A DNA stretch of 64,000 bases from Mobula hypostoma (GCF_963921235.1 NC_086107.1:105588001-105652000); one strand, 5' to 3'; shown: positions 310-63,050, counted from the first letter of the stretch. Notes: generated from the sequence alone by a model not told the origin. Made by a program: numbers and translations.

Positions 310-345
310 CTCGAGCTTCAGAGTGACTATTTCTTTCTGTAGAAT
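310..345 (-). CDS. Type-C exon: [12 protein letters not shown]
   Basis: ttccag|36 nt|gtatca. Confidence 0.7.
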
Positions 346-3300
346 CTGGAAAAGAAGGGAAAGAATTTCAGTTCACCAATCACAGGGCATTCTCTATGGA
401 CATTATCAGTTCAGCTCCAAAACATTCGGTCGCATTTTAATGACACTTCACTGTAAGCTGGTGATGTATAGTTGACAGATGACAGAACATAGAAAAGTAC
501 AGCACGGTCCAGGCCCTTCAGTCCACAATGTTGTGCTAACCCTTTCACCTACTCTAAGATCAATCTTACCCTTTCTACTACCATCAATCCTGCCAGAGCA
601 TTCCACGCAATTTCCACTCTCTGTGTATAAAAACCAACCTCTGACAATCCCCTGTACTTTCCCACAAACATGGGAGATCTGTTCCGTCCTGTATCCATTT
701 TCAGCTTGGGAAATTATCTCCGGCTGTCCACTCAATCTATGCCTTTGGTGTACACCTCTATCACACCACCTCTTATCCTCATTCTTGTGGTTAGACCACG
801 CTTGGAATATTGTGTTCAGTTCTGGTCACTTCATTGTTGGAAGGATGAGGAAGCTTTAGAGAGGGTGCAGAGAAGATTTACCCAGACGCTGGTTGGATTA
901 GAGAGCATGTCTTATGAAGAGATATTGTTCAAGCGAATGCTTTTATCTAAGGAGCAAAGACATCTGGGTAGCATCCTTGTAAATCTTCTCTGCACTCCCT
1001 CTAAAGCTTCTACATCCTTCCTATAAAGAAGTGAACAGAAATCATACAATACTCTAAGTGTGGTCTAACCAGAGTTTTATAGAGCTGCATCATTAACTTG
1101 TGGTTCTTGAACTCGATCCTGCGACTAATTCTGCCTTCGGGTTTGACTTTCCAAAGTGAATAATTTACACTTTTCTAAGTTGAACTCCATCTGCCATTTC
1201 TCAGCCTCTCCTGGAATAAATGCTTCTGCAATGCATCCAGTCTGCTCCCCATTCTATCTGATTCCTTGTGGATTCTGATGTCAAGTAACTAACCAGTGAA
1301 CTACACCTCTCAGACACAGATTATCTCAGTCAATAATCTCTGTATAGAAAGAAATCCACGAACCATCATCTTCTCGGGAACCAATCACTTTGATTCTCCT
1401 TTCTCCACTTTCTTTGGAAGCTGGAAGTTAAAAGTGTTTGATTATAAAATGGAAGGTGAGTGTGGAAACTCTCCCATCTTCAAAATGTATCCCTGTAACG
1501 TGCAGCTATCTGTTCACACTCACACACGTCACTGCCACTGATCTGAGTACCTCCCCATGATCTGCTCACCCATTGCCCAACACCGCACCTGAGGCTGGGA
1601 TTAGATCCAACTTTCTCCCGGGACACAGCGACCTGAATATGATCTCCCTGTGGTGAGTGAGAGTTTTCCCCTGGAGGTGAGACAAGTGTCTATGGGTCCA
1701 GGTTGGTGTCCAACCAAACTCGTCAGCTTCAGCTCATCTGAGCCTTCCATACCAAGGAACCTTTGTCGGGGATGATGTTGTCCCTCTCTCACACACTCCA
1801 CCCTCCTGTCTGCTCAGATTCAGGAACAGGGCTCACAGTGTTGGGGTTTCCAGCCAAGGCCAATGGTTACCCACGGATTCCCAGTGTCATTAGTACAATT
1901 GTCAATAGATTGTTCACCAGAGAGTGTGACAGCAAGAGATTGAAATCATAAATATTGTTACCTCGAGCTTCAGAGTGACTATTTCTTTCTGTAGAATCCG
2001 GAAAAGAAGGGAAAGAATTTCAGTTGACCAATGACAGGGCATTCTCTATGGCCATTATCAGTTCAGTTCTCAAACTCTCCCCCCATTTTAATGACACTTC
2101 ACTTTTAGCTGGTGATGAATTGTTCACAGATCATTGAACATAGAACAGTCCAGTACAGTCCGGGTGCTTCAGGCCCTAACGTTGTGCTAACATTTTAACC
2201 TTCTCCAATGTCAACCTTACCCTTTCTTCTCATAGCCCGTTATTAATCTTTTGTCCATGTGCCTTACAATCTCTTAAATGTCCTTCTACCATCACCCCCG
2301 GCAGCGCATTCAACACAATTACCAGTCTCTGTGTATAAAACACTAACCTCAGACATCCCCCTGAACTTCCCCACAAACACGTCGGTTTTGCTCCCTCAAT
2401 TTTCCATTTCCACCTTGGGCAAACATCCTTGGCTGTCTACTCTATCTATGTCTTTACTGTACACTTTGATCATACCACCTCTTATACCCCTTCTTGTGGT
2501 TAGAAAACACTTGGAAATTTGTGTTCAGATCTAGTCCCTTTATTATTGGAAGGATGAGGAAGCTTTAGAGAGGGTGCAGAGAAGAGTTACCCAGACGCTG
2601 GCTGGATTAGAGAGCATGTCTTATGAAGATATATTGACCAAGCAAATGCTTTTAACTAAGGAGTAAAGAGACACCTGGGTAGGATCCTCGTAAATCTTCA
2701 CTGAGTTCTCTCTAAAGTTTCTACATACTTCCTATAAAAAAATGATTACAATACTCCTAGTGGGGTCTAACCAGAATTTTATAGAACTGCAACGTAACCT
2801 GGAACTTGATCCCCCGACTAATTCTGCCTTCAAGTTTGATCTTCCAAACTGCATCACTTCACACTTTCCTGAGTTAAACACCATCTCCCACTTCTCAGCC
2901 TCTCCTGGAATAAATGCTTCTGCTTTGTATCCAGTCTGTTCCCCATTCTACCTGATTCCTTGTGGATTCTGATGTCAAGCAATTAACCAGTGAACTACTC
3001 CTCTCAGACCCAGATTAGCTCAGTCAACAATCTCTGTATAGAAAGAAATCCACGAACCATAATCTTCTCGGGGATCAATCACTTTGATTTTCCTTTCTCC
3101 ACTTTCTGTGGAATCTGAAAGTAAAAATTGTTTGATTATAAAATGGAAGGTGAGTGTGGAAATTCTCTCAGCTTCAAAGTGTATCTTTGTAACGTGTAGC
3201 TACCTGTTCACACTCACACACGTCACTGCCACTGACCTGAGTACTTCCCCATGATCTGCTCACCCATTGCCCAACACCCCACCTGAGGTTGGGATTAGAT

Positions 3301-6300
3301 GCAACTTTCTCCCGGGACACAGCGACCTGAATATGATATCTCTGTGGTGAGTGAGAGTTTTCCCCTCAAGGTGAGACAAGTGTCTATCGGTCCGGGTTGG
3401 TGTCCACCCAAACTCGTCAGCTTCAGCTCATCTGAGCCTCCCACACCAAGGAACCTTTGTTGGGGATGATGTTGTCCCTCTCTCACACACTCCACCCTCC
3501 TGTCTGCTCAGATTCAGGAACAGGGCTCACAGTGTTGGGGTTTCCAGCCAAGGCCAATGGTTACCCACGGATTCCCAGGGTCATTAGTACAATCGTCAAT
3601 GGATTGTTCACCAGAGAATGTGACAGCAAGAGATTGAAATCATAAATATTGTTACCTCGAGCTTCAGAGTGACTATTTCTTTCCGTAGAATCTGGAAAAG
3701 AAGAGAAAGAATTTCAGTTCAGCAATCACAGGGCATTCTCTGTGGCCATTATCAGTTCAGTTCTCAAACTCTCCCCCCATTTTAATGACACTTCACTTTT
3801 AGCTGGTGATGAATTGTTCACAGATCATTGAACATAGAACAGTCCAGTACAGTCCAGGTGCCTCAGGCCCTAACGTTGTGCTAACATTTTCACCTTCTCC
3901 AATGTCAATTTTACCCTTTCTTCTCATAGTCCATTATTAATCTTTTGTCCATGTGCCTTACAATCTCTTAAATGTCCTTCTACCATCACCCCTGGCAGCG
4001 CATTCAACACAATTGTCAGTCTCTGTGTATAAAAACCTAACCTCAGACATCCCCCTGTACTTCCCCACAAACACGTCGGTTTTGCTCCCTCAATTTTCCA
4101 TTTCCACCTTGGGCAAACATCCTTGGCTGTCTACTCTATCTATGTCTTTACTGTACACTTTGATCATACCACCTCTTATACCCCTTCTTGTGGTTAGAAA
4201 ACACTTGGAAATTTGTGTTCAGATCTAGTCCCTTTATTATTGGAAGGATGAGGAAGCTTTAGAGAGGGTGCAGAGAAGAGTTACCCAGACGCTGGCTGGA
4301 TTAGAGAGCATGTCTTATGAAGATATATTGACCAAGCAAATGCTTTTAACTAAGGAGTAAAGAGACACCTGGGTAGGATCCTCGTAAATCTTCACTGCGC
4401 TCTCTCTAAAGTTTCTACATCCTTCCTATAAAAAAGTGATTACAATACTCCTAGTGGGGTCTAACCAGAATTTTATAGAACTGCAACATAACCTGGAACT
4501 TGATCCCCCGACTAATTCTGCCTTCAAGTTTGATCTTCCAAACTGCATCACTTCACACTTTTCTGAGTTAAACACCATCTCCCACTTCTCAGCCTCTCCT
4601 GGAATAAAGGCTTCTGCTTTGTATCCAGTCTGTTCCCCATTCTACCTGATTCCTTGTGGATTCTGATGTCAAGCAATTAACCAGTGAACTACTCCTCTCA
4701 GACCTAGATTAGCTCAGTCAACAATCTCTGTATAGAAAGAAATCCACGAACCATCATCTTCTCTGGGTCCAATCACTTTGATTCTCCTTTCTCCACTTTC
4801 TTTGGAATCTGAAAGTAAAAATTGTTTGATTATAAAATGGAAGGTGAGTGTGGAAATTCTCTCAGCTTCAAAGTGTATCTTTGTAACGTGTAGCTATCTG
4901 TTCACACTCACACACGTCACTGCCACTGATCTGAGTACTTCCCCATGATCTGCTCACCCATTGCCCAACACCCCACCTGAGGTTGGGATTAGATGCAACT
5001 TTCTCCCGGGACACAGCGACCTGAATATGATGTCTCTGTGGCGAGTGAGAGTTTTCCGCTGGAGGTGAGACAGGTGTCTATGGGTCCGGGTTGGTGTCCA
5101 CCCAAACTCGTCAGCTTCAGCTCATCTGAGCCTCCCACACCAAGGAACCTTTGTCGGGGATGATGTTGTCCCTCTCTCACACACTCCACCCTCCTGTCTG
5201 CTCAGATTCAGGAACAGGGCTCACAGTGTTGGGGTTTCCAGCCAAGGCCAATAGTTACCCACGGATTTCCAGGGTCATTAGTGCAATCGTCAATGTATTG
5301 CTCACCAGAGAATGTTACAGCAAGAGATTGAATTCAGAAATGTTGATACCTCGAGCTTCAGAGTGACTATTTCTTTCTGTAGAATCTGGAAAAGAAGGGA
5401 AAGAATTTCAGTTCACCAATGACAGGGCATTCTCTATGGCCATTATCAGTTCAGTTCTCAAACTCTCACTCTCATTTTAATGACACATCACTTTAAGCTG
5501 GTGATGAATTGTTCACAGATCATTGAACATAGAACAGTCCAGTACAGTCCAGGAGCTTCAGCCCATAATGTTGTGCTAACCCTTTAACCTTCTCCAATGT
5601 CAATCTTACCCTTTCTTCTCACATAGTCCTTCATTTCTTTCATCCATGTGCCTTAGAGTTTCTTAAATGTCTCTCTAACATTACCCCTAGCAGCGCATTC
5701 CACACTATTACCACTCTCTGTGTATAAAAACGAATCTCAGACATAATATGCACAATTTCGTTTCTAAAAGGGTTTATCTAACGAATTAAATATTAAACAC
5801 ACAGCACATATTTTCCTTGCATGAATGTAGCGATAAGTCAATTATCAGGGGAAGACAGGGGAGCTTGAAGTAAGTGTTGAACGAACTTCCAGTAGAAGTG
5901 GTAGAGGCCGGTTCGATATTATGATTTAAAGAAAAATTGGATAGGTATATGGACAGGAAAGGAATGGAGGGTTATGGGCTGATTGCAGGTCAGTGGAACT
6001 AGATGAGAGATGAGAATAGCGTTTGGCACGGACTTGAAGGGCCGAGATGGCCTGTTTCCGTGCTGTACTTGTTATATGGTTATACGGTTATCCCCCTGTA
6101 CTGCACCTCAAACACGCGAGTTTTCCTCCTTCAATTTTCCATTTCCACCTTGGGAAAATATCCTTGGCTGCCTACTCTATCTATGCCTTTACTGTACACT
6201 TTGATCATAGCACCTTTTATCCTCATTCTTGTGGTTAGACCGCACTTGGAAATTTGTGTTCAGTTCTGGTCACTTCATTGTTGGAAGGATGAGGAAGCTT

Positions 6301-9300
6301 TAGAGAGGGTGCAGAGAAGATTTACCAGGACGCTGGCTGGATTAGAGAGCATGTCTTATGAAGATATATTGATCAAGCGAATGCTTTTATCTAAGGAGCA
6401 AAGACATTTGGTACCATCCTTGTAAATTTTCTCTGCACTCCCTCTAAAGCTTTTACATCCTTCCTATAAAGAAGTGAACAGAAATCAACACAATACTCTA
6501 AGTGTGGTCTAACCTGTGTTTTATAAGCTGCAACATTACCTTGTGGTTCTTGAACTCGATCCTGCGACTAATTCTGCCTTCAGGTTTGACTTTCCAAAGT
6601 GAATAATTCACACTTTTCTGAGTTGAACTCCGTCTGCCATTTCTCAGCCTCCCCTGGAATAAATGCTTCTGCAATGTATCCAGTCTGTTCCCCATTCTAC
6701 CTGATTCCTTGTGGATTCTGATGTCAAATAATTAACCAGTGAACTAATTCTCTCAGAACCAGATGAGCTCAGTCAACAATCTCCGTATAGAAACAAATCC
6801 ACGAACCATGAACTTCTTGGGATCCAATCACTTTGATTCTCCTTTCTCCACTTTCTTTGGAATCTGAAAGTAAAAAGTGTTTGATTATAAAATGGAAGGT
6901 GAGTGTGGAAAGTCTCCCAGCTTCAAAGTGTATCCCTGTAACGTGTAACTATCTGTTTACACTCACACACGTCATTGCCACAGATCTGAGTACCTCCCCA
7001 TGATCTGCTCACCGATTCCCCAACACCCTACCGGAGGTTGGGATTAGATCCATCTTTCTCCCGGGACACAGTGACCTGAATATGATCTCTCTGTGGCGAG
7101 TGAGAGTTTTCCGCTGGAGGTGAGACAGGTGTCTATGGGTCCAGGTTGGTGTCCACCCAAACTCGTCAGCTTCAACTCAGCTGAGTCTCCCAAACCAAGG
7201 AACCTTTGTCGGGGATGATGTTGTCCCTGTCTCACACACTCCACCCTCCCATCTGCTCAGATTCAGGAACAGGGCTCACAGTATTGGGGTTTCCAGCTAA
7301 GGCCAATGGTTACCCACGGATTCCCAGGGTCACTAGTACAATCGTCAATGGATTGTTCACCAGAGAATGTTACAGCAAGAGATTGAAATCATAAATGGTC
7401 GATACCTCGAGCTGCAGAGTGACTATTTCTTTCTGTAGAATCTGGAAAAGAAGGGAAAGAATTTCAGTTCAACAATGACAGGGCATTCTCTATGGCCATT
7501 ATCAGTTCAGTTCTCAAACATTCGCTCTCATTTTAATGACACTTCACTGTTAGCTGATGATGTATAGTTGACAGATTACACAACATGGAAAAGTACAGCA
7601 CGGTCCAGGCCCTTCAGCCCACAATGTTGTGCTAACCCTTTCACCTACTCCAAGATCAATCTTATCCTTTCCTCTCACATAGTCCTTCATTTGTCTTTCA
7701 ACTATGTGCCTCAGAGTCTCTTAAATATCCCTAATATATCGCCAACTACCATCAATCCTGGCAGAGCATTCCACGCAATTTCCACTCTCTGTGTATAAAA
7801 ACCAACCTTTGACAATCCCCTGCACTTCCCCACAAACATGAGAGATATGTTCCGTCCTGTATCCATTTTCACCTTGGGAAATTATCTCCGGCTGTCCACT
7901 TTATCTATGCCTTCGGTGTACAGCTCTATCACACCACCTTTAATCTCCTTCTTGTAGTTAGACCACACTTGGAGTATTGTGTTCAGTTCTGGTCACTTTA
8001 TTACTGGAAGGATGAGGAAACTTTAGAGAGGGTCCAGAGAAGAATTACCAGCACGCTGGCTGGATTAGAGAGCAGTCTTCTGAAGATATATTGATCAAGC
8101 TCTGGCTTATATCTAAGGAGCAAAGAGACATCTCCGTAGGATCCTCGTAAATCTTCTCTGTACTCTCTCTAAAGCTTCTACATCCATCCTATAAAGAAGT
8201 GAACAGAAATGAACACAATACTCTAAGTGTGGTCTAACCAGAGGTGTTGTAGAGCTGCAACATTACCTTGTGGTTCTTGAACTCGATCCCCCGACTAATT
8301 CTGCCTTCACATTTGATCTTCCAAACTGAATCACTCCACACTTTTCTGAGTTGAACTCCATCTGCCATTTCTCAGCCTCTCCTGGAATAAATGCTTTTGC
8401 TTTGTATCCAGTCTGTTCCCTATTCTACCTGATTCCTTGTGGATTCTGATGTCAAGTAATTATCCACTGAACTAGTCCTCTCAGAACCAGATTAGCTCAG
8501 TCAACAATCTCTGTATAGAAAGAAATCCACGAACCATCATCTTCTCGGGATCCAATCACTTTGATTCTCCTTTCTCCACTTTCTTTGGAATCTGAAAGTG
8601 AAAAGTGTTTGATTATAAAATGGAAGGTGAGTGTGGAAAGTCTCCCAGCATCAAAGTGTATCCCTGTAATGTGGAACTATCTATTTACACTCACACACGT
8701 CATTGCCACTGATCTGAGTACCTCCCCATGATCTGCTCACCCATTGCCCAACACCCCACCTGAGGTTGGGATTAGATCCAACTTTCTCCCAGGACACAGT
8801 GACCTGAATATGGTCTCTCTGTGGTGAGTGAGAGTTTTCCCCTTGAGGTGAGAGAAGTATCTATGGGTCCGGGTTGGTGTCCACCCAAACTTGTCAGCTT
8901 CAACTCATCAGAGCCTCCCATACCAAGGAACCTTTTTCAGGGATGATGTTGTCCCTCTCTCACACACCCCACCCTCCTGTCTGCTCAGATTCAGGAACAG
9001 GGCTCACAGTGTTGGGGTTTCCAGCCAAGGCCAATGGTTACCCACGGATTCCCAGGGTCACTAGTACAATCGTCAATGGATTGTTCACCAGAGAATGTTA
9101 CAGCAGAGATTAAAATCATAAATATCGATACCTCGAGCTTCAGAGTGACTATTTCTTTCTGTAGAATCTAAAAAAGAAGGGAAAGAATTTCAGTTCACCA
9201 ATGACAGGGCATTTTCTATGGCCATTATCAGTTCAGTTCTCAAACGCTTGCTCTCATTTTAATGACATTTCACTTTAAGCTGGTGATGAATTGTTCACAG

Positions 9301-12300
9301 ATCATTGAACATAGAACAGTGCAGTACAGTCCAGGAGCTTCGCCCATAATGTTGTGCTAACACTTTAACCTTCTCCAATGTCAATCTTACCCTTTCTTCT
9401 CACATAGTCCTTCATTTCTCTTTCAACAACCTCTGAACGCACTTTCAAGGTCTCTTCATCTTATTTGCAGAGTTTGCTGTTTTTTGGACTCCCCTACCAT
9501 GGGGAAAAGGCCGTCACCCTCCACCCTACCAATGCACCTCGTACTTTCTGTAAGTCTTCCTTCATTCCCTACGTCCCAAGGAATAATCACTGGCCTGGCG
9601 AACCTCTCCCTATAACTCACACTATCTGATCCGAGCAACATCTTTGTAAAAGGAACTTTGGCACATTGATGAATGATTTAAAAGTCTCTCCTCCAGCCTC
9701 CTGTAACTCACTATCCCTCCCCTCCTGCATTTTCACCAATCCCAGGAGCCAGTGGTACCCTTATCCTTTCCAATACAATTTTCTTCCTCACCCTGATCTG
9801 TATCCAATTTATTTATTCCTGAGAGTCCTCCTTCTGAATTTTGTTTATCACAGTTCCCTTCACCATTCCCCTGATCCGGAATAAATCCGAGTGCTCTGTA
9901 TAACGTTTTCCCTCCGCTCATCTGCCCGCTCCTGGATTCCTTACGGATTAGCTGGCGGGCAGGCACGCTCGCAAGCAGACAACTCCCCGTACGTTAGCGC
10001 GGTCAATAATCCCCACACAGAGTAATCCACGTACCGTCGTCTCCTCCGGACGCAAGCACTTTGACCTTCCTTTCGACGCTCTCATCGGAATCTGAAATAT
10101 AAACCGGATTCCAATTGTGGAACGAAATTCAGTGTGAAGGGTTCGCAGAGGTTGTCGGCCTCTCACGCGGCTATTTGCTTACACACTCTCAGTGTCTGCT
10201 GCCCAAAAGCCCAGGTTCGATGGTAAAGTACAGAAGCTGGTGTCAGCTGTATTAACCTTGAGCTTCTCGTCCATTCGATGAGACTGTCTAGCTCAGAACC
10301 ACCTTCCTTCAATAATCTTGATCTACCTCAGCCTTGAAAATATTTAGTAATACCCTCAGAGAAAATTGTACTCTGAATAAAGGGGTGACACCTTATCTTG
10401 AGCTAATACCCCTCGTGATTACACCCTCTGCCCTGCCAAAAACACCAGGGGGAGATATCACGTGAGGTACACGCTTTGGTAGGAAGAATAAAAGTGCAGA
10501 CTCTTTTCTAAACAGGGAGAGAATTCAGAAATCAGAGGTGCAAAGCGACTGTGAGTCCTAGTTCGGGATTCCCTCAGCTTGCAGGCTGAGTCGGCAGTAA
10601 AGGCAGCAAATACAATGTTAGCAGTCATATCAAGAGGACTGGAACATAAACAAGGATGTCCTGCTGTGGTTTTATTTAATGTTTATCAGACTGCATTTGG
10701 GACATTGTGAGTAATTTTAGGACCTGTAACTATTTACTCGGTTATTTATTTAGAGATAGAGTGTGGAGCAGGCCCTTTGAGCTCCAGCGCCCAGCAACCT
10801 AATTATTTAACCCGAACCTAATCACAGGACAATTTACAATGACCAATTAACATACTAACTTGTACATCTTTGGAGAAACCAAGAGGAAACCCACAAAGTC
10901 ACTGGGTGAATGTACAAACTCCCTACAGGTGGCTTTGGAATTGAGCTTCAAACCCCGATGCCCCGAGCTGTAATAGCAATGCGCTAAGGGCTACGTTACC
11001 ATGGCGATCATCCCCAAGGAAAGATCTTCTGGTCCTGGAGAAGGTCTAAGGAGAGATGTGCTGGTCCTGGAGAGGGTTTAAGGAAAGATGTTCTGGTCCT
11101 GGAGGGGGTTGAAGGAGAGATGTGCCAGTCCTGGAGATGGTCTAAGGAGAGATGTGCTGGTCCTGGAGAGGGTCTAAGGAGAGATGTGCTGGTCCTGGAG
11201 AGGGTTTGAGAAAGATGTTCTGGTCCTGGAGGGGGTTGAAGGAGAGATGTGCTGGTCCTGGAGGGGGTTTAAGAAAGATGTTCTGGTCCTGGAGGGGGTT
11301 GAAGGAGAGATATGCCAGTCCTGGAGATGGTCTAAGGAGAGATGTGCCGGTCCTGGAGAGGGTTTAAGGAAAGATGCGCTGGTCCTGGAGGGGGTCGAAG
11401 GAGAGATGTGTTGGTCCTGGAGAGGGTCCAGCGGGGTTTCACAAGAGTGATCCTGGCAATGAATGTCTGATATCTCTGGGCTTTCCCTCGGTGGAATTCA
11501 GCAGAGGGAGGGGGGTTCCTACTAAAACCTACCAGACACCGAAAGGCCTGGATAGAGTGGACGTGGAGAGAAGGAATATCAAGGATCCGAGGGCACAGCC
11601 TCAGAATAAAGGGATGTCCCTTTAAAGCTGGGATGAGGAGGAAGCGCTTCAGCTAGAGCATGGCGAATCTGTGAAACTTACTGACGGAGAGAGCAGTAGA
11701 AGCCAAATCATTGGATTATTTAAGCCAGAGGTTGATAGGTTTTCATGAAGTCTCCTTCTGGTAAAATGTTATTTTCCCTCCCCCCTGCTTCTATTCCCCA
11801 CTGTCCTTTTACCTCTTCTCATCTGCTATCACTTCCGCCTCCCCCGCCCCAGGACTCCTCCTCCTTCCCTTTCTCCGATGGTCCACTCTCCTATCAGGTT
11901 CCTTCATCTCCAGACCCTCAGCTTTCCCACCCACCTGGCTTCACCTGTCAACTTCCAGCTAGCCTCCTTCCCCTTCCTGTCACCTTTTTATTCTGGCGTC
12001 TTCCCCCTTCCTTTGCAGTCCTGGTGAAGGGTCTCAGCCTGAAACGCTGACTGTTTATTCACTTCCATTGATCCTGCCTCACCTCCTGGGTTCCTCCAGC
12101 ACTTTGTGTGTGTCGCTTTGATACGTTCTTGAGGTAAGTGGGTTAAATGCAATGGGGAAAAGGCAGGAGAATGAGGTTGATTAAAAAAAACCCATGACTG
12201 AATGGCGGAGCAGACTCAATGGGCTGGTGGTCTAACTTCTGCTCCAGTATTTTGTGGTCTTGTAGTCACAGCATCTGTCTTGTGGGCGCCACTGGAATTA

Positions 12301-15300
12301 TATATTTCAATGGGATCCCCTGTATTAACTATAGTGAGTATAAACCCAAAGTAGTAAACCTATCTTCACACAGCAATCTCCACATCTCAGGAAATCAGTC
12401 TATTGAACCATCTCCAATAGACCCTCCCTTATGTAGACATCAGAGTAGTCCACAAGAGGTTGCATCCCAATAAGAGCATATCTTCCTCAATTTTTTTTTC
12501 ACTCCAATACTCTTGCAACAAAGGCCACTAGTTCACCATTCATAGAGTACTCCAGCTCAGATGCAGGCCCTTTGGCCCATCTAGTCCATGCCAACCTGGT
12601 CTTCTGTCCTGTATGACTCCTTGACTTTACGTCTTTGCTTGGAGTAGATGGGCCATGATGCTTTTCATTGATGGGGCAGGCTTGAGGGGTGAGTGGCCTA
12701 CGACAGTGGCTATTTCCATGTTTTCTTTGCCCGGATGGGGATGGATTTAACTTGGGTCAGGTGAGTTTGGGTCGGTTTAATATTATCCCTGAGCTTCCAT
12801 TCTACACAGGGCGCATGCTGGTTGTGAGAGAGTCTGGGACCGAGGCCCAGCGGACAGAACGAGTCTGGTCGCCACACGCACGGATTCAGTAAAACCTCGA
12901 ATTGTCCACTCACTGGAGTTGTTGTTGTTCTGGTTCTTCTCTCCGCTCTCACCCGAATCTGCATCAGAGACAACAGAGCAACCTTTGATCACTGAGGAAT
13001 GTTTGTGAAATCTCCGCGTGCTGGAGCTGCTCCAGCCCCATCGGGTTCTCGTTAAACCAGGGGAGGGTGGCAATGTGTGAGAGGGGCTCTCTGCACACAC
13101 CCCGTTCCCAGTTTTCCCGGGGCGTGCAGATTTGGGAACGGCTCTCAGATCCCGCTCCACCACCCTGGCACCAAGCAGTCCCAGAACCCAGGGCAGAAGC
13201 TGGACCAGACCCAGAGCGGACTGTCCCACTCTGCCCTGAGAGTCGACTGCAATCAATGGTCCAGCCACTCTGAACACAGTGCGATCAGTTCGTATACAGG
13301 GTCTTCCTTTGCTTGGTTGCACCCTCTCCAGACGCTGTCTGACCTGCTGAGTGTTTCATTCAATTTCTGTCTTTACTTCAAACCCTTTAATTCTCTAATC
13401 AAGTTCTTTAATTCCTCATGGTAGTGCTAGTGTGACGCTATTACAGTGTCGCCATTGGGAGTTCAATTCCGTCATCTATAAGGAGTTTGTACATCCTCCT
13501 TGTGGAATGCACAGATTTCCTCCAGGTGCTCCAGTTTCCTCCTGCAGTCCAAAGACGTTAGTGCATTTTGGTAAAAGGAACAATAGTGCAGACTATTATC
13601 TAAATGGGGAGAAGGTTCAAACATCAGAGGTGCAGAGGGACTTAGTGGTCCTTGTACGAGACTCCCAGAAGGTTAGTTTAAAGGTTGAGTCTGTGGTAAA
13701 GAAGACAAATGCAATGTTGGTATTTATTTCAAGGGGAATAGAATACAAAAGCAAGGAGATAATGCTGAGCCTTTATAAGACACTAGTCAGGCCGCACTTG
13801 GAGTATTGTCAACAGTTTTCGGCTCCTCATCTCAGGAAGGATGTGTTGTTATTGGACAGAGTCCAGGGGAGGTTCAAGGGGAACATTCTGGGAATGAAGG
13901 GGTTAACATATGAGGAGCGTTTGGCAGCTTTGGGCCTGTGCTCACTGGAATTGAGAAGAATGCGGGGGGGGGGATCTCATTGAAACCTACTGAACGTTGA
14001 AAGGACTAGATAGGGTGGATGTGGAGAGGATGCTTCCTATGGTGGGGGTGTCCAGAACTAGAGAGCACAGCCTCAAAACTGAGGGGTGACCCTTTAGAAC
14101 GGAGATAAGGAGGAATTTTTTTTTTTAGCCAGAGAGTAGTAAATCTGTAGAATGCTCTGCTGCAGACTGTGGTGGAGGTCAAGTCTGTGCGTATACACCT
14201 AACAGCACTGTGGGTGTACCTACAACTCAGGGATTGCAACTAGGGATGGGCAATAAATGCTGGTTTAGCTGGCAATGCCCACATCCTGTAAATGAATTAA
14301 AAAATATATATATTTTAGGCAGAAGTTCCTGATCAGTCAGGGCATCAAAGGATATGGCGAGAAGGCAGGTGTATAGGGTTGAGCCAAATCTGGGATCAGC
14401 CATGATGGAATGGCAGAGCAGACTCAATGGGCTGAATGGCCTAATTCTGCTCCCATGTCTTATGGTTAGTTGGTCATTGTAAACTGTCCTGTGATTAGGC
14501 CAGGGTTAAATCGGAGGTTGCTGGGTTCCACGGCTCAAAGGGCCAGAAGGGCCTATTCTGCACTGAATTCCAATAAATAAATAAAAATAAGTCATCTTCT
14601 TTGTTATTTTTCTAACGCTCTCTTTGTTAGCCTCTCGCGCTGCTGTGAGCAAATCGTGGGCGTTACTCCTCAATCCCCCGTTGCCCTCCCAGCCACCTTT
14701 AAGCTGTGCTCAGGAAACTGTGTCCTCCTCATTTTCCTCATCCCTCACTCCGATCGCGAGGTGTTTCATATGACAAAGGCCCCAGTTCCTGTGGATGACC
14801 ACAGCCAAAAATCCCCACACAGAGAGAAATCCACAAACCGTCATCTTCCCTGGATCCAGTCACTCGGATTTTCCGCTCGCCGCTCTCTTTGGAGTCTGAA
14901 ATGGAAATCGGCTTCTGATTAGAAAATAGTAAATAGGCGTGAAAGGTTCACAGTATCAAAGTGTGTCCTTGTTACTGTTCATCACACTTACACTTTGCAC
15001 TCCCCCTACCCCACGAGCTTTCCCATTACCCAATGGCCACTTATGGTGTGGGGTCAAGGTAGGGCTGTTCTCCTAGTCACAGTGTCTCCTGGGATGAATT
15101 TGCGCATTGGTCCTGGGTGTGAAGCAGGTACCCATGCGTCCAGGCCGGCGTCTATCTCTAACCTGCAGAGCTGCACACAGATCCAGCGTCTCCCCAACAC
15201 TCCACCCTGCCAGCTCCTCAGGTACAGGAACAGGGAGCCCAGCACTGACCCAGCAAAGGCTCACAGCATTGGGTTTCCACGCAAGGTCAATGGATCCCAG

Positions 15301-48300: not shown

Positions 48301-51300
48301 CCCGGAGGAAACCTGCGTGCGCACGGGAAGGAACAGATAAACTTGCTTGCAGAGGATGCTGGAATTGAACGCCGACCACAGGCGCCCTGAGCTGTAATAG
48401 CTTCGCGCTAACCGCCTCGCTACCGTTTCTGTTCTATATCCAGCCTGTTCACTGCTCCGCTGCCTGCCCCCGGCTCCACGCGGATTTGACGTGAAATACG
48501 CAGCTTTTTAACCCTCACAGTGCCAGCTCCCCTCCACACCAGCTCAGTCAATAATCCCCACACAAACCGTCGTCTTCTCTGGATCCGATCACTCTGATTT
48601 TCTGCTCGCCACCCTCTTTGGAACCTGAAAGCAAAACCAGTATTTGATCATAAAATGTGAAGAGTGTGTGGAAAGTTCAGTTTTAAAGTGCGTCTGTGTT
48701 CCCAGTCATATTCAAACGCTGTGTCCCTACTGATCTGACTCAGAGCGGGTGGGATTGTCCAGCTTTTTACCAGGTTACTACTAACTGAACCCCAGAGTCT
48801 CTGGGTCGAGTGGGTCTCCTACGCATTGATCTGAGATGCCTGGCTGCCGAGTTGGTGTCCTCCCAATGCATTAAGTTTTCCAGTCAACTCACAGACACGA
48901 GAAAGTCTGCAGAAGCTGGAAGCCCAAAGCAACAAGCACCTACAAAATGCTGGAGAAACTCAGCAGGTCAGGTAGCATCAATGGAAAAGAGTAGACTGGC
49001 AACGATTCGGGCCGAGACCCTTCTCGATAAGTTTCAAGGACCTTTTGGGAACTAGAATCAGGTCGGTTTGGAGGAGGACAAATCCCGACTCCAGCTCGTG
49101 GAAGGGAGTACAGGAATTAGATGCTGATACCCTGGGATTTCTGAATAGCCGATAGCGGATTATCAGATTTACTGTATGTAGAATGAACAGGAATAAACGT
49201 GTGCTGATATTTAAGTTTCATTCAAGTCTCCTTCCTGTCGGTCACCATAAACCAAAGGGGGATCTGGCCTTAGTTTTTGTATCCTCAAGGTTATTATAGC
49301 TGGGGATGGTAATGGGGGCAATCTCCCATTGCCTATTAAATCCTCCCAATGGCTTGCGCCTCAAATAGTCTCTGACAACCAAGTCCAGCTCCTGGCCTTT
49401 GCATGTGGCTTAGCAGAACAGTTTCTACTGACTGGAGAAGGGGCAAAGGCAGGTTTCTGGTGCCTTAAAGCCAATCACTTCCAGCAGTTGGGGAACATCA
49501 GCCGTGGTTGTAAGCTCATCTAGGAGAAGGAAAAACTCTGATCTGAAAGCCCTGCTGCCTTGAGGTTATATCCACTGATGGGGGAGGCTTCAGGAGTAAA
49601 CACCGAGGAAAAATCCAAAGTTGGAGTCCCTAAGGCCATCCTACGTTGAGTTCAACACCGACTGGCAACTCCTGCGACGCCGCTGGTTATTAACTGTATC
49701 AGTCCCTGCCGTTCCTTTGGATTCATCAGCTGCGTGGAGAGGGGGAGCTTGCCGCATGGGCCCTGGCTTGCGTAGACAGCTGGGATGCAACATCCATGGT
49801 TAACCCTGATTAACAGAGGACCTACACAGAGGCATTGGTGGCAAGTGTAGGGTGGTTCTGCCGAGCCTGTATAAAACTCTAGGATGGCAGCTTCTGGCCA
49901 ACGTCAGACACTTCACCTTAGCAAGACCATGTAGGACTTGTGGAGGGTACAGGAACAAGGATCTGGAATGGTTCCTGGGACAAAGGGTAAAGGTAGAAGG
50001 TCAGCCCGGAGAGAATGGGGTTGCTCTCCTTGGGGAGGCATTGGATAGAACATACCTAGATCATAACACTTTCTTTGGGGCAAACTGAAGGAAGCTGATC
50101 CTGGTAGCGGAAGATCTAAAGAGCAGGGGACACAGCTTCAAAATGGTGTGCAAAGATAGAAGGCATGTTTGTGGACCTCTGTTTGTACAGATCGTAGTTT
50201 TGATCTGAACGTGTCTGTCAATTAGTGCCCCGAACGAGGGATTGGGTTTGGGAACTGAGATAGAATAACATGCAGAGCTGTGGGTAACGGGATGGGGGTT
50301 GCTCTGTTAGAGCTGGCACAGACCTGATTGGCCAATTCTATGATTCTATGTTCTTACATGTTGGCGCGTGGCCAAGTGGTTAAGGTGTCAGTCCAGTGAT
50401 CTGAAGGTCGCTAGTTCGAGCCTCAGCTGAGGCAGCGTGTTGTGTCCTTGAGCAAGGCACTTAACCGCACATTGCCCTGCGACGACACCGGTGCCAAGCT
50501 GTATCGGCCCTAATGCCCTTCCCTTGGACAACATCGGTGGCGTGGAGAGGGGAGACTTGCAGCATGGGCAACTGCTGGTCTTCCATACAACCTTGCCCAG
50601 GCCTGTGCCCTGGAGACCTTCCAAGACACAAATCCACAGTCTCATGAGACTAATGGATGCCTATATACGTTCTTATATATCATTCTTACTTGTATTTTGT
50701 ACATCTTCTTCGCTATTACATTGCTCAACCATTCAGTGTGGGAGTGAACGTCACAGTCTATTTTTCACCTGGGTTGCTGCTTTGCATTGTGAATCTCTTT
50801 CCTAAATCTCATTCAATTTTTAGTTTTGCAAGAGCCCATGGCCTCCAGCTACCTCCCTACCTCCCCTACCCCTCAGTTCCTTCAGCACTGGGGGGTTCTT
50901 CCCTCGACCGGGCCTCCCCTAAACCAATTCCTTCTGCTTTGTATCTGGCCTTCCAGTCCCCGTTCTGTTGCTGGTATCCATGGATCGGATATCACGTACA
51001 TAAAGAGCTTGTTAATCCCCACTGACCCAGTCTATCCCATCGGTGGTGGGGAAACTGCTAGAGTCAGTTATCAAAGATGTGATAACAGCACATTTGGAAA
51101 GCGGTGAAATCTTCGGACAAAGTCAGCATGGATTTGTGAAAGGAAAATCATCTCTGACGAATCTCATAGAATTTTTTGAGGATGTAACTAGTAGAGTGGA
51201 TAGGGGAGAACCAGTGGATGTGGTATATTTGGATTTTCAAAAGGCTTTTGACAAGGTCCCACACAGGAGATTAGTGTGCAAACTTAAAGCACACGGTACT

Positions 51301-61571: not shown

Positions 61572-63050
61572 AGATTTGCAAACTGACTCCTTCCACTTGT
61601 TCAGGTCCAGCACTACACCAGCCTTCCAAACCCAGCGAGAAAAGCCCTGTAAGTGGCAGAATGGGACTTTTCTGCTCGCTGTTACAGGGAACGAATAGAC
61701 TGATCAAGGAATCTTCTAATTACATTTAAATTGCAAACATACCAACCTCCAGTAGCAATTAGTCCTCAGTTATTGGCAGTAATAGCAAAAATATTCAGAT
61801 AGAAATCTTAAATCAGAATAGAATCGCAACAGGACACCGTGAAAGTTGAAGGAAGTAATGATACTGACCGTCTCTTTCATTAGAGTTTCTGAAGATCACT
61901 GCAAAAGACAGAGAAATACCGTGTCACAATGACGCTTCCAGTGAGATCGATCGATAACGACCAGTATCAACAGACCAATTTACCATGGAGGGATTTTCAG
62001 AATCTTTCTGACTGTTTCTGGGTTTTTCTTGCCTTGTTTTTCCTCACCCTCTGCCCCATTATTTGAACGTGAGAGGAGAACGGGGAGGTCTCCGCGTCCG
62101 TGCAGTGATGCTGGTGCCTTGCAGCATCTCCAGCACATCTGCAGTACCCACTGACTCGGGCTTCCTGCAACCATACGCTCCTGCCCTATTGCCTTTGGCT
62201 GGCGATCCATCCGATCTTGCTGTGGGTAAGATCGAGGATGGCACCCCCTCCCCGGAACCTTCTACAGACGCCCCTCCGACTGGGTAACGTTTGGGAAGAA
62301 ATTCGAGGAGGTTTAAACCTCTCCCCATGCCAGAGATCCTCACACTCCCTCCCCTCCCCAAGGGCTGCGGTGAAAATATGTGGCAGAGGTTTCCGGGTTC
62401 CAGTGACGGATCACGGGGTCGCTGCGAGGGTCGGTTGGGTTGCCGCAGCCTTGTGTAGTCGTAAGGTCGCCGAATCAACGCAGGGTCATCGTCAGGTAGT
62501 TACAAGGACTCACAACCATTGCAGGGATGGTGTAAGATCCCAATGTCACCGCAGGTGGTCACAAGGTCACGCCTGGGGTTTGCCGTAAGGCGTCTCCACC
62601 CCAGGCGGACCCGCAGGACGGCCGGGGTGCCGTGAGGGAGGGCAGGGGAAATGCGCCGCAGCCCCACGAGAACGGAGCGCAGGTTGCTGCTGCAGCGGGC
62701 AGGGTGGGGAGCGCCAGGCTGCGAGAGAACTCTGCCCGCTCTGCCCGCTCATCTTAAACCCGTCTTTGCAAATGCGCAGCTGGGATTTTTTTCCCCCTGA
62801 GAGTGCGAGGAAGCCAGGATGAATTAAGCGAATGATCCTACATCACGAAATGACTGCGCACTGAAAATCTTCCTTGGATTTTGCGTCTCCCAGGTAGGGG
62901 TAAGGTGCGAGTTAAATCCTTCCATGCTACAGATCTTTAATGCGGTGCTAACCGGACCAGGTTAACTCCTCTGCTCCGAGGAGACAGCCTACCTCCGCAG
63001 TAGGTATGGACCACCAGTCCGAGGAGAGCGAACAACAGCAGGCTTCTCAT
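310..63050 (-). CDS. Multi-exon gene (36 intact + 3 disabled micro-exons; 3' end outside window) for a secreted Ser-x-Glu-rich repetitive phosphoprotein, possibly MGP/osteocalcin family
   Basis: ATG plus 19-aa hydrophobic signal peptide ending at a phase-1 GT donor. All intact downstream exons are AG...GT bounded, 30/36/45/57 nt long and open in the phase-1 frame. Intact exons total 1699 nt (566 codons + 1 nt) with no stop; the frame runs off the window start. Confidence 0.85.
1364..1420 (-). CDS. Type-A exon: [19 protein letters not shown]
   Basis: ttccag|57 nt|gttcgt. Confidence 0.7.
1962..1997 (-). pseudogene. Type-C exon copy with lost acceptor (AG to GG)
   Basis: Plus strand reads gaatccgg where sister copies read gaatctgg; coding part intact. 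Confidence 0.65.
3058..3114 (-). CDS. Type-A exon: [19 protein letters not shown]
   Basis: tttcag|57 nt|gttcgt. Confidence 0.7.
3656..3691 (-). CDS. Type-C exon: [12 protein letters not shown]
   Basis: ttccag|36 nt|gtaaca. Confidence 0.7.
4752..4808 (-). CDS. Type-A exon: [19 protein letters not shown]
   Basis: tttcag|57 nt|gttcgt. Confidence 0.7.
5350..5385 (-). CDS. Type-C exon: [12 protein letters not shown]
   Basis: ttccag|36 nt|gtatca. Confidence 0.7.
5745..6089 (+). mobile_element. CR1-type LINE 3' fragment inserted in one array unit
   Basis: Absent from sister units; ends in a GGTTAT-like repeat tail; accounts for most of the longer 2056-bp period. Confidence 0.65.
6807..6863 (-). 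CDS. Type-A exon: [19 protein letters not shown]
   Basis: tttcag|57 nt|gttcgt. Confidence 0.7.
7406..7441 (-). CDS. Type-C exon: [12 protein letters not shown]
   Basis: ttccag|36 nt|gtatcg. Confidence 0.75.
8535..8591 (-). CDS. Type-A exon: [19 protein letters not shown]
   Basis: tttcag|57 nt|gttcgt. Confidence 0.75.
9132..9167 (-). CDS. Type-C exon: [12 protein letters not shown]
   Basis: ttttag|36 nt|gtatcg. Confidence 0.75.
10035..10091 (-). CDS. Type-A exon: (D/N)[18 protein letters not shown]
   Basis: tttcag|57 nt|gtacgt. Confidence 0.75.
10460..12260 (+). mobile_element. Degraded CR1-like LINE 3' portion, interrupted by a SINE (~10750-11005), the minisatellite and a Penelope-type terminal fragment (~11750-12120)
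   Basis: Similar to other CR1 copies in the window (GLDRVDVER and RGHSLRI motifs, 3' UTR). Confidence 0.65.
11016..11430 (+). repeat. 32-bp minisatellite (~13 copies) derived from CR1 ORF2
   Basis: Unit aaggagagatgtgctggtcctggagagggtct matches the CR1 [10 protein letters not shown] motif and continues into CR1 3' sequence. Confidence 0.85.
12914..12958 (-). CDS. Unique type-D exon: [15 protein letters not shown]
   Basis: atgcag|45 nt|gtgagt; a second in-frame donor (gtttta) would extend it to 12896 (63 nt). Confidence 0.65.
13419..14590 (+). mobile_element. V-SINE-like element split by a nested CR1 LINE fragment (~13561-14465)
   Basis: ggtgctccagtttcctcc...ccaaagac V-domain-like core; insert translates [17 protein letters not shown] resumes and ends in (AAAT)n. 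Confidence 0.7.
14839..14895 (-). CDS. Type-A exon: [19 protein letters not shown]
   Basis: tttcag|57 nt|gtttgt. Confidence 0.8.
15323..15737 (-). mobile_element. Rex1/Babar-type LINE 3' end
   Basis: [19 protein letters not shown]...[12 protein letters not shown]-terminal motif; (TCTAA)n tail; apparent TAGTA target-site duplication. Confidence 0.75.
15802..15837 (-). CDS. Type-C exon: [12 protein letters not shown]
   Basis: ttccag|36 nt|gtatgg. Confidence 0.8.
15983..16018 (-). CDS. Type-B exon: [12 protein letters not shown]
   Basis: tttcag|36 nt|gtagtt. Confidence 0.8.
16956..17012 (-). CDS. Type-A exon: [19 protein letters not shown]
   Basis: tttcag|57 nt|gtttgt. Confidence 0.75.
17973..18008 (-). 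pseudogene. Disabled type-C exon [11 protein letters not shown]
   Basis: Acceptor AG changed to AT, and CGA changed to an in-frame TGA stop. Confidence 0.8.
18156..18184 (-). pseudogene. Disabled type-B exon (29 nt, frameshifting)
   Basis: 7 nt shorter than the other B copies; most of the pyrimidine tract is deleted. Confidence 0.75.
18670..19620 (-). mobile_element. Unclassified interspersed repeat (related fragments near 20915, 23255, 38720)
   Basis: Shared tttattatcaaag...acaaccctga...cagacagccacgaaacaa block at four sites. Confidence 0.5.
21139..21452 (+). mobile_element. tRNA-derived SINE with CORE-like domain
   Basis: A/B-box-like head, gtccttgagcaaggcacttaa core, (TAA)n tail, ATAATAAAGTAG repeated on both flanks; homologs at 40100-40421 (-) and 50360-50666 (+). 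Confidence 0.75.
21763..21819 (-). CDS. Type-A exon: [19 protein letters not shown]
   Basis: tttcag|57 nt|gtttgt. Confidence 0.75.
24210..24245 (-). CDS. Type-C exon: [12 protein letters not shown] (weak GAG acceptor)
   Basis: ttcgag|36 nt|gtattg. Confidence 0.55.
24393..24428 (-). CDS. Type-B exon: [12 protein letters not shown]
   Basis: tttcag|36 nt|gtacag. Confidence 0.7.
25491..26122 (-). mobile_element. Penelope-like element 3' fragment (GIY-YIG C-terminus)
   Basis: GDRFAEH...VAAHFN...[20 protein letters not shown]. Confidence 0.8.
26372..26660 (+). mobile_element. tRNA-head SINE nested in a Penelope-type fragment
   Basis: ggtggcgcaatg...gggttcaaaacc A/B-box-like head; related copy at ~39716-39922. 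Confidence 0.6.
27455..28060 (-). mobile_element. CR1-like LINE 3' fragment
   Basis: [15 protein letters not shown]...ERVQRKF...[14 protein letters not shown]. Confidence 0.75.
28235..28291 (-). CDS. Type-A exon: [19 protein letters not shown]
   Basis: tttcag|57 nt|gtttgt; differs from the array copies only by synonymous changes. Confidence 0.8.
28431..28829 (+). mobile_element. Solo LTR (399 bp) with 5-bp TSD
   Basis: TGTAATGA...TCATGACA termini; TATCA at 28426-28430 and 28830-28834; internal AATAAA; truncated copy at 21932 to ~22160. Confidence 0.75.
29608..29664 (-). CDS. Type-A exon (1.55-kb array): [19 protein letters not shown]
   Basis: tttcag|57 nt|gtttgt. Confidence 0.8.
31158..31214 (-). 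CDS. Type-A exon (1.55-kb array): [19 protein letters not shown]
   Basis: tttcag|57 nt|gtttgt. Confidence 0.8.
32709..32765 (-). CDS. Type-A exon (1.55-kb array): [19 protein letters not shown]
   Basis: tttcag|57 nt|gtttgt. Confidence 0.8.
34268..34324 (-). CDS. Type-A exon (1.55-kb array): [19 protein letters not shown]
   Basis: tttcag|57 nt|gtttgt. Confidence 0.8.
35820..35876 (-). CDS. Type-A exon (1.55-kb array): [19 protein letters not shown]
   Basis: tttcag|57 nt|gtttgt. Confidence 0.8.
37068..37103 (-). CDS. Type-C exon: [12 protein letters not shown]
   Basis: ttccag|36 nt|gtattg. Confidence 0.75.
37250..37285 (-). CDS. Divergent type-B exon: [12 protein letters not shown]
   Basis: tatcag|36 nt|gtagtt; SxE motif lost. 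Confidence 0.6.
37764..38715 (-). mobile_element. CR1-like LINE 3' portion (RT end and 3' UTR)
   Basis: [10 protein letters not shown] and [13 protein letters not shown]...[14 protein letters not shown]. Confidence 0.85.
40100..40421 (-). mobile_element. tRNA-derived SINE (same family as 21139)
   Basis: Reverse-complement match to 21142-21440; (CTATA)n tail. Confidence 0.75.
40642..40698 (-). CDS. Type-A exon: [19 protein letters not shown]
   Basis: tttcag|57 nt|gtttgt. Confidence 0.8.
40790..41370 (-). mobile_element. Degraded Penelope-like fragment
   Basis: [17 protein letters not shown]...EATLR. Confidence 0.65.
41596..41900 (-). mobile_element. RTE LINE 3' end with expanded (GAT)n-type tail
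   Basis: Reverse-complement match to ~58432-58648. Confidence 0.8.
42238..42273 (-). CDS. Type-C exon: [12 protein letters not shown]
   Basis: ttccag|36 nt|gtacgg. Confidence 0.75.
42417..42452 (-). CDS. Type-B exon: [12 protein letters not shown]
   Basis: tttcag|36 nt|gtaggt. Confidence 0.75.
43478..44036 (+). mobile_element. CR1-like LINE 3' fragment
   Basis: [26 protein letters not shown]...TRGHSLRI. Confidence 0.8.
44156..44212 (-). CDS. Type-A exon: [19 protein letters not shown]
   Basis: tttcag|57 nt|gtttgt. Confidence 0.8.
45269..45304 (-). CDS. Type-C exon: [12 protein letters not shown]
   Basis: ttccag|36 nt|gtattg. Confidence 0.8.
45444..45479 (-). CDS. Type-B exon: [12 protein letters not shown]
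   Basis: tttcag|36 nt|gtatgt. Confidence 0.8.
47219..48060 (+). mobile_element. 5'-truncated RTE-clade LINE with 10-bp TSD
   Basis: DLDFADD RT motif, [14 protein letters not shown]; (TAG)n tail; GCCCTAGGGT at 47209-47218 and 48061-48070. Confidence 0.85.
48568..48624 (-). CDS. Type-A exon: [19 protein letters not shown]
   Basis: tttcag|57 nt|gtttgt. Confidence 0.8.
49300..49830 (+). mobile_element. Non-autonomous interspersed repeat (inverted copy at ~54195-54690), possibly RTE-related
   Basis: Reverse-complement homology between the two loci. Confidence 0.5.
50360..50666 (+). mobile_element. tRNA-derived SINE (same family as 21139)
   Basis: ggcgcgtggccaagtggttaagg...gttcgagcc head and the same body. 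Confidence 0.75.
51042..51669 (+). mobile_element. CR1 LINE reverse transcriptase fragment
   Basis: [32 protein letters not shown]; internal stop. Confidence 0.9.
51670..52660 (-). mobile_element. Penelope-like element with GIY-YIG endonuclease region
   Basis: [30 protein letters not shown]... Confidence 0.85.
55860..58648 (+). mobile_element. Near full-length, disrupted RTE-clade LINE (APE endonuclease + RT)
   Basis: [17 protein letters not shown] and SDH endonuclease motifs; [25 protein letters not shown]; (ATG)n tail; stops and frameshifts. Confidence 0.9.
58905..59510 (-). mobile_element. CR1-like LINE 3' fragment
   Basis: Degenerate TRGH...RRNCFS..LWNSLP motif and 3' UTR. Confidence 0.7.
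60965..61512. mobile_element. Tc1/mariner-type non-autonomous DNA element
   Basis: Imperfect TIRs cagtggccactttataagtac ... gtacctaataaagtggctactcagtg; no transposase ORF. Confidence 0.65.
61538..61568. repeat. (TG)n microsatellite
   Basis: Read directly. Confidence 0.9.
61869..61898 (-). CDS. Exon 2 (30 nt): [10 protein letters not shown]
   Basis: tttctctgtcttttgcag|TGATC...AGACG|gtcagt; strong pyrimidine tract, phase 1-1, contains S-N-E. Confidence 0.75.
62993..63050 (-). CDS. Exon 1 coding part: signal peptide [19 protein letters not shown]
   Basis: ggaaATGAGAAGCCTGCTGTTG...TACTGCGGAG|gtaggc; 58 nt, phase-1 donor; basic n-region, Leu-rich h-region, small residues near the end. Confidence 0.85.

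Follow-up and report, generated by a model that had tools for sequence, protein, structure and literature searches.

The minus strand of the window (the whole 64,000-nt stretch analysed, C45:105588001-105652000 in a 3.48-Gb assembly of 200 contigs from the ray Mobula hypostoma) carries the 5′ part of a gene that spans at least 106,774 bp and is best read as a real, apparently unannotated orphan gene predicted to be transcribed into the message of a secreted, Fam20C-type phosphoprotein. The full model, for which the analysis was extended by 130 kb leftward and 20 kb rightward of the window, joins 72 intact exons (3,310 nt) into 1,103 open codons containing no stop; the last exon and the stop codon lie outside the model. 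A protein-coding gene is recognized by an open frame running over canonical splice sites and by purifying selection; both were found here, and the locus is very probably a functional coding gene. The observed exon series is not due to chance.

Exons were recovered by scanning for AG...GT blocks with a length that is a multiple of three and an open phase-1 frame, by blastn with each exon type, and by alignments. Canonical AG and GT ends are present in each of the 72 exons of the model, and the acceptor regions are 85–99% pyrimidine at most positions from -16 to -3. The introns measure 116–13,244 nt (median 1,089) and interrupt the frame in phase 1 in every case (71/71). Every exon after exon 1 is a symmetric phase 1-1 micro-exon of 30–57 nt, so that gain, loss, or skipping of any exon keeps the reading frame.

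The gene opens with a TATA-like box (ATAAAAAG, 63128..63135), 85 nt upstream of the ATG, which may serve as its promoter element. Exon 1 (62993..63050; 58 nt, ATG at 63050, donor gtaggc) comprises 19 codons and one base, which places the first intron in phase 1. Its 19-residue peptide consists of Met-Arg, an 11-residue hydrophobic core, and then His-Thr-Tyr-Cys-Gly; the suggestion, made earlier from the same DNA, that the product is secreted fits this N-terminus, which, read by eye, is built like a secretion signal that closes on small residues. Exon 2 (61869..61898; 30 nt, phase 1-1, acceptor ...ttttgcag, donor gtcagt) was read from the sequence and also recovered by the scan. The exon 1 sequence occurs a single time in the 3.48-Gb assembly, and all 29 six-frame matches to the A unit described below, obtained with a 19-residue protein query, fall in the present locus on the same strand. 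We are thus dealing with one gene and not a gene family.

Four types of repeated exon follow, which we call A (57 nt), B (36 nt), C (36 nt), and D (45 nt), all on the minus strand and given here in the order of transcription. The A exons were recovered by the scan, A1 additionally by blastn and alignment and A4–A8 by comparison of their units; the B, C, and D exons were recovered by scan and alignment except where stated. The first three groups are A1 (48568..48624), B1 (45444..45479), and C1 (45269..45304); A2 (44156..44212), B2 (42417..42452), and C2 (42238..42273; from alignment), the last intact and lacking a Ser-x-Glu motif; and A3 (40642..40698), B3 (37250..37285; from alignment), which is open and has its splice sites and a decayed motif, and C3 (37068..37103). 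A run of five A exons comes next: A4 (35820..35876), A5 (34268..34324), A6 (32709..32765), A7 (31158..31214), and A8 (29608..29664). Another complete group consists of A9 (28235..28291), B4 (24393..24428), and C4 (24210..24245). Exon A10 (21763..21819) is followed by two dead copies identified by alignment, a B copy (18156..18184) reduced to 29 nt by a 7-nt deletion that would shift the frame, and a C copy (17973..18008) with AT instead of AG at the acceptor and an in-frame TGA. Exon A11 (16956..17012) precedes the fifth intact B (15983..16018) and the fifth intact C (15802..15837), and A12 (14839..14895) precedes exon D (12914..12958), which is Asn-rich and has the donor gtgagt. The stop-free frame that surrounds exon D, 190 residues long, matches no Pfam family and does not resemble coding sequence.

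The remainder of the window is an array of A-C pairs. It comprises A13 (10035..10091), the sole A exon with a gta donor, with the C exon that opens the array (9132..9167); A14 (8535..8591) with C (7406..7441); A15 (6807..6863) with C (5350..5385); A16 (4752..4808) with C (3656..3691); A17 (3058..3114) with a dead C copy (1962..1997; from alignment), whose frame is open and whose acceptor reads GG; and A18 (1364..1420) with the window's last exon, a C (310..345; from the scan). The window thus holds 18 A, 5 intact B, 10 intact C, and 1 D exon. Exon 1 and the 35 further intact exons amount to 1,699 nt and 566 open codons, and the product of these codons contains 64 Ser-x-Glu and no Ser-x-Asp motifs.

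The sequence-only reading of this DNA had proposed a series of about 39 micro-exons in the order E1, E2, (A-B-C)x3, Ax5, A-B-C, A-(dead B, dead C), A-B-C, A-D, (A-C)x4, A-(dead C), A-C, with AG/GT ends, phases of 1-1 throughout, and an open product of about 566 codons. All of these elements were found in their places on the minus strand and the order was recovered exactly; the ends and phases agree for the window's intact exons, the 36 of which splice into 566 open codons, and alignment identified the lesions in the three copies (one B, two C) that it had called dead. It had also expected the gene to continue past base 1, which it does, with 36 more intact exons and three more dead copies in the next 44 kb or so, to about C45:105544278. 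The leftward search it advised for the terminal exons succeeded in part: the array was traced over this distance, and no last exon, stop codon, or polyadenylation site was found left of it, where there are many candidate acceptors and AATAAA signals, none preferable to the others.

In this left extension the array goes on with 11 A-C pairs and 2 unpaired A exons before it passes into a more diverged tail, made up of two further A exons, an A-like exon of 51 nt, five exons each of types B and C, and a D copy of 42 nt, the second in the gene. Mis-assembly could have altered the copy numbers in those tandem arrays of the gene that are nearly identical. An exon-like block of 39 nt at window coordinate -37162 was discarded, since dispersed sequences matching it occur elsewhere on both strands.

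The donor sites of the A exons are peculiar. A T at donor position +3 (GTTTGT or GTTCGT) occurs in 32 of 71 donors, namely those of 31 of the 32 A exons and of the 51-nt A-like exon. Donors of this kind are uncommon and weak among vertebrates, so the A exons may be weakly or alternatively included; since all exons are symmetric, any skipping of an A exon would stay in frame. Downstream of the older A exons, at a distance of approximately 10–45 nt (as at 44150-44120), a GT-rich stretch has been retained that closes with a run of G (…TGTGTGGGGAT). Its identity is about 0.6 in the older A units, compared with about 0.3 further out, and it may be an intronic splicing enhancer that aids the weak GTT donors.

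After removal of the predicted signal peptide, the product of the full model, which does not include the last exon, has 1,084 residues, with 17.8% Ser, 15.0% Glu, 12.2% Asp, 10.1% Arg, 9.3% Lys, 8.0% Gly, and 0.5% Tyr, a single Cys, and a calculated pI of 4.92. It contains 121 Ser-x-Glu motifs (11.2 per 100 residues), compared with 28.9 +/- 4.6 in 1,000 composition-preserving shuffles (maximum 44), and one Ser-x-Asp, compared with 23.2 expected; as the product is built of repeats, what the counts really describe is four types of exon. Of the 193 serines, 121 lie in Ser-x-Glu and 25 more in Ser-x-Ser. Almost all A, B, C, and D exons start with Asp-Ser-x-Glu. Each 19-residue A unit has three Ser-x-Glu motifs around a short basic-hydrophobic core, and the B and C units have one each, at the start. 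Stretches rich in Asp, Glu, and Ser alternate with the short basic-hydrophobic stretch Arg-Lys-Ile-Lys-Val-Ile-Gly. None of the exon types found encodes a domain-sized unit, and the product is probably disordered, with blocks of alternating charge.

The null hypothesis for such an array is tandem duplication drifting neutrally. Exon diversity is below intron diversity in all six sets of copies compared, both in the younger sets (0.062 vs 0.09–0.10, 0.026 vs 0.07–0.14, and 0.022 vs 0.17) and in the older ones (0.23 vs 0.48–0.51, 0.21 vs 0.48–0.52, and 0.21 vs 0.41–0.53). Gapped columns are absent from the exons of the six sets and number 19–146 per intron flank. The identity profile stands at 0.81 within the exon, falls to 0.50–0.55 in the adjoining 50 nt on each side, and is about 0.3 beyond. 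In the proposed frame, synonymous changes make up 55% (A) and 72% (B) of single-base codon differences, where 21% is expected, and third positions are the most variable. Crude omega, which like the diversities was computed from all pairs of paralogous copies and so from non-independent pairs among which gene conversion may act, is 0.22 for A and 0.10 for B in this frame, which is free of stops; the other two sense frames give 0.5–2.0 and contain stops.

The exon types differ in how firmly they are held. The C exons are weakly constrained at the amino-acid level (crude omega about 0.8). In the B exons, the antisense frame with the same wobble position comes close to the score of the proposed frame (crude omega 0.15), which leaves the splice signals and exon 1 as the grounds for assigning the strand. 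Three columns, Ser2, Glu4, and Glu7, do not vary among 14 A exons; they are the fixed residues of two Ser-x-Glu motifs, so that selection holds exactly the Ser-x-Glu residues; Ser5, Val12, and Asp18 are nearly invariant. Judged by these patterns, the copies do not behave as neutral repeats, and the exons are under a coding constraint that preserves the frame.

The duplications that built the array differ widely in age. Four 1.55-kb units of the A4–A8 run are 97.8–98.8% identical, and the A-C units are 83–99% identical and show a higher-order alternation of 1,722- and 1,865-nt units. In the A1–A3 units, the introns have diverged to about 0.5, which marks old duplications. Growth by tandem duplication of exon-plus-intron units through unequal exchange, partly old and partly recent, is supported by these comparisons. 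Six of 78 copies are dead, having lost the acceptor, the donor, or the frame, three of them in the window and three to its left; so small a number is a further observation against neutral drift. Two dead C copies (1997-1962 and window coordinate -17604) have the identical AG-to-GG acceptor change, with the frame open in both; the lesion was therefore copied with its unit, which is direct evidence for higher-order duplication of units that had already differentiated. The B and C flanks cross-match in blastn, and this, together with the Asp-Ser-x-Glu start common to the exon types, suggests that all of them may descend from one ancestral micro-exon.

Searches for relatives used queries that included intron-encoded flanks and 19 true residues each, so that distant relatives could have been missed in all three of the following comparisons. 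A 40-residue stretch containing exon A4, compared with longer proteins in a collection of 5.8 billion, gave 12 candidates sharing words with it, none significant. A 64-residue stretch containing exon 1, compared with proteins of near length in the same collection, gave one candidate and no match at E <= 10. A profile built from 13 A exons and a little flanking sequence had no matches among 1.84 billion representatives. We found no such gene described in the open-access literature searched, by text, a kind of search that cannot find a peptide by its sequence.

As a control, we took the single-exon TRIM56-like ORF approximately 125 kb to the left, which has a 100% identical NCBI/UniRef entry. 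The public proteome of this genome is therefore in the collection, and the present product appears to be missing from it. This neighbour (C45:105461987-105464038, minus strand) is an intact ORF with RING, B-box, and NHL regions, named E3 ubiquitin-protein ligase TRIM56-like, and its relatives in other rays, skates, and sharks are 49–82% identical. In the same region, C45:105472316-105474689 runs for about 2.3 kb with no stops in any of the three plus frames; it is a degenerate short-period repeat with a Pro/His/Ser/Thr-rich reading and looks like a minisatellite, not a gene.

With these results, the remaining claims of the sequence-only reading can be placed. That the locus is a single repeat-expanded gene agrees with the uniqueness of exon 1 and with the old and recent tandem duplication of exon-plus-intron units. 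Its description as lineage-specific fits the zero matches among 1.84 billion cluster representatives and the lack of any copy elsewhere in this genome, and its warning that annotation may miss the gene fits the absence of the A unit and exon 1 from the 5.8-billion protein collection, in which the neighbour's NCBI protein is present. On the whole, its interpretation is supported in part, with an extracellular matrix protein as a candidate identity of the product.

Words of exon 1 were also sought in sequencing runs. Among the runs that contain them, none is catalogued as RNA; four from a single study, tentatively RNA, contain 0.64–1.00 of the 11 words sampled. When these four were placed on 44100-63200, depth came mostly from dispersed repeats, and of about 1,000 joints the 15 available for inspection included none at the predicted junctions. 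The exon 1 bin has some depth in all four runs, with 0, 0, 0, and 0.25 in the adjoining intron bin; the uncovered parts are uninformative, and we let this placement count neither for nor against transcription. The introns contain decayed RVT_1 pieces on the plus strand, at 47221-47715 in the A1–B1 intron and at 51016-51552 and 57453-58454 in the 13.2-kb intron 2, which also has a GIY-YIG match on the minus strand (52059-52664), and a further reverse-transcriptase ORF lies directly upstream of the gene (L014:7707-9230). Such retroelement repeats swamped the placement of reads on the locus. Other repeats are a 32-nt minisatellite (12.9 copies, 84% matches) at 11016-11427, in the intron between exon D and A13, and a (TCA)38 tract at 41595-41708, in the intron between C2 and A3.

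A mechanism can be proposed that joins these features. Exon 1 would supply a short 5′ leader and a signal peptide, by which the product would enter the secretory pathway, and repeated unequal crossing-over would duplicate exon-plus-intron units consisting of A-B-C, of A alone, or of A-C. In the secretory pathway, a kinase of the Fam20C type would phosphorylate the Ser-x-Glu sites many times. The phosphorylated product would be a disordered polyanion that binds calcium or a calcium-phosphate or carbonate mineral, in analogy to acidic SCPP/SIBLING proteins, caseins, phosvitin, and starmaker, and outside the cell it would regulate how mineral forms or serve to transport calcium. The motif given for the Golgi kinase Fam20C is S-x-E/pS (PMC8348777). 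The present product contains Ser-x-Glu/pSer motifs of this kind, the residues of which are invariant among A exons. There are four Fam20-family loci in this genome, on C36, C45, C50, and C68; one of them lies on the same contig (C45:98364602-98379114), at about 7.2 Mb probably too far from the gene for this to mean anything. Taken as a whole, with the calcium or mineral mechanism included, the proposal of a real coding gene seems to us moderately probable.

In chemistry, the predicted product is close to the acidic SCPP/SIBLING proteins (DMP1, DSPP, SPP1) and to starmaker, itself a secreted, acidic, disordered protein rich in Ser-x-Glu: all are, or in the present case are predicted to be, secreted, acidic, disordered, and rich in Ser-x-Glu sites of the Fam20C type. 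The present gene differs from the SCPP/SIBLING genes in having far more exons (at least 72), denser motifs, and no sequence similarity detected with the 19-residue queries. Like SCPPs, its product is predicted to be secreted and acidic (pI 4.92), has many Ser-x-Glu motifs (121), and lacks a Kazal or calcium-binding domain. SCPP genes grew by internal duplication of short symmetric exons with one functional motif each (PMC3632108), lie at the SPARC-L/SPARC-L1 locus, and have phase-0 (class 0,0) modules (PMC9122587, PMC3632108), whereas all 71 introns of the present gene are in phase 1. The Pfam family SPARC_Ca_bdg has eight matches in this genome (E <= 0.001), on C1, C9, C21, C50, and C63 and none on C45, the contig of the gene, and we rejected an origin from the SCPP locus on this positional ground. 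By analogy, the locus would work like an acidic SCPP and is not a member of the family.

Two systems already described in cartilaginous fishes invite comparison. The elasmobranch scpp, present in sharks and rays and lacking any annotation at the time of its discovery, specifies a secreted protein that is rich in Asp/Glu and contains Ser-x-Glu sites; the gene was put forward as an SCPP of independent evolutionary origin (Leurs et al. 2022, PMC9122587). It lies tail-to-tail with sparc-L, copies the 5′ exon structure of that gene, has its first three introns in phase 0, and encodes a Tyr-rich region and repeats of PDYXXPXX, with Ser-x-Glu at a density of about 1.8 per 100 residues (PMC9122587). 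The present gene, by contrast, lies on a SPARC-free contig, has all introns in phase 1, and encodes 0.5% Tyr, and its 11.2 Ser-x-Glu per 100 residues are about twice the highest value in that study (5.1) and six times that of the elasmobranch Scpp (1.8). The expanded Spp2 (secreted phosphoprotein 24) family of cartilaginous fishes consists of secreted proteins that accumulated Ser-x-Glu in a lineage-specific manner and are linked to cartilage mineralisation in a cartilaginous fish, with one Spp2-like member lacking the cystatin-like domain (PMC13188829), and resembles the present product, itself predicted to be secreted, in this enrichment. All 12 Spp-24 matches in this genome at E <= 1 (four over the curated cut-off) fall within C18:136889911-137375682 and none on C45. 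An origin from the Spp2 locus was thus rejected by position, and no cystatin-like exon was seen at the present gene. The clustering of these 12 exon matches within 0.5 Mb on C18 suggests that Spp2 has expanded in tandem in this genome, as it is reported to have done in other cartilaginous fishes.

The exon architecture has parallels in unrelated genes. In elastin, an extracellular repetitive protein, a long run of small exons splits codons after the first base and permits in-frame skipping and duplication; the present gene is like elastin in this respect and unlike it in its acidic, Ser/Glu/Asp-rich product, elastin being hydrophobic and Gly/Val/Pro-rich, with Lys cross-link exons. The micro-exon genes (MEGs) of schistosomes, which are hard for gene finders, offer another parallel. 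They encode secreted proteins and consist of symmetric micro-exons of 3–81 bp separated by long introns (bioRxiv 10.1101/2023.06.21.545858). The likeness is one of architecture only, in which exon skipping keeps the frame, and the MEGs differ in belonging to an unrelated phylum and in their unrelated sequences and small proteins.

The gene may be real and its product secreted, and still have no part in mineral formation: the product could be a hydrated polyampholyte with a non-mineral extracellular role, for example a casein-like carrier of calcium and phosphate in the fluid that the uterus of a live-bearing ray secretes, a component of a mucus or gel, an adhesive, or a lubricant. Exon structure, constraint, and motif statistics are the same under this explanation as under the calcium or mineral one, and alternating acidic and basic blocks are as compatible with self-association or coacervation as with the binding of mineral. 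The host belongs to the myliobatiform rays, which feed their embryos with a uterine secretion, and recent growth in copy number suits a bulk secretory product. However, the literature searched yielded no protein inventory of ray uterine secretions for comparison, and Ser-x-Glu densities this high are best known from mineral-related and calcium-carrying proteins, so that this alternative overlaps in its chemistry with the calcium or mineral reading. We regard it as unlikely.

Still less probable, in our estimate, is a dying or dead gene or an unused array, in which the exon-like blocks would be relics amplified along with their introns and left unspliced today. The lack of an annotated product in the protein collections, the weak donors of the A exons, the six copies of 78 that are already dead, the loss of motifs from exons B3 and C2, and the failure to find the end of the gene left of the array would all fit. 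Yet 72 consecutive intact exons keep 1,103 codons open; old copies, with introns about 0.5 diverged, have no exon indels and show a frame-specific synonymous excess; and at exon 1 the ATG, the hydrophobic core, the donor, and the TATA-like box are intact. The youngest units (about 98–99% identical) are too young to weigh in either direction.

A polyprotein precursor, modelled on multi-copy neuropeptide or antimicrobial-peptide precursors, in which cleavage at Arg-Arg or Arg-Lys frees a short basic peptide from each A unit and the acidic Ser-x-Glu stretches are spacers, would account for the 29 dibasic pairs in the mature product, the near invariance of Val12 in the basic-hydrophobic core, and the predicted signal peptide ahead of many tandem copies, but is very improbable, because the released piece of about seven residues would lack Cys, a dibasic site at its C terminus, and a normally placed Gly amidation signal, because the best-conserved columns (Ser2, Glu4, and Glu7) lie in the supposed spacers instead of the supposed peptide, and because Arg-Lys and Arg-Arg vary among copies.

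Returning to the reading as a secreted phosphoprotein gene, to our knowledge cartilaginous fishes have long been described as lacking SCPPs, and the means by which their cartilage, teeth, and scales become mineralised, when the SCPP cluster known from bony vertebrates is missing, are still debated. The locus would add a third origin of Ser-x-Glu-rich proteins beside the elasmobranch scpp (PMC9122587) and the Spp2 duplicates (PMC13188829), to which recent papers point as independently evolved, and with 121 motifs and no detectable relatives it is much more extreme than these two. We advance only tentatively, and with some doubt, the wider proposal that it represents a third kind of hyper-phosphorylatable, secreted, calcium-binding protein, outside the SPARC-L/SCPP and Spp2 loci, which the ray lineage would have invented from scratch by amplifying one Asp-Ser-x-Glu micro-exon into at least 72 exons, an expansion that would still be under way.

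The gene shows how a disordered protein may grow by symmetric micro-exons, with old and very young duplications adjoining, dead copies skipped, and the frame always kept. At more than 100 kb, it would be invisible to ORF-based and probably also to homology-based annotation, and similar genes may hide in other large genomes. Expression in the lining of the uterus would make its product an analogue of casein with an evolutionary origin independent of mammals, and expression in tessellated cartilage, teeth, or denticles would make it a mineralisation factor specific to the lineage.
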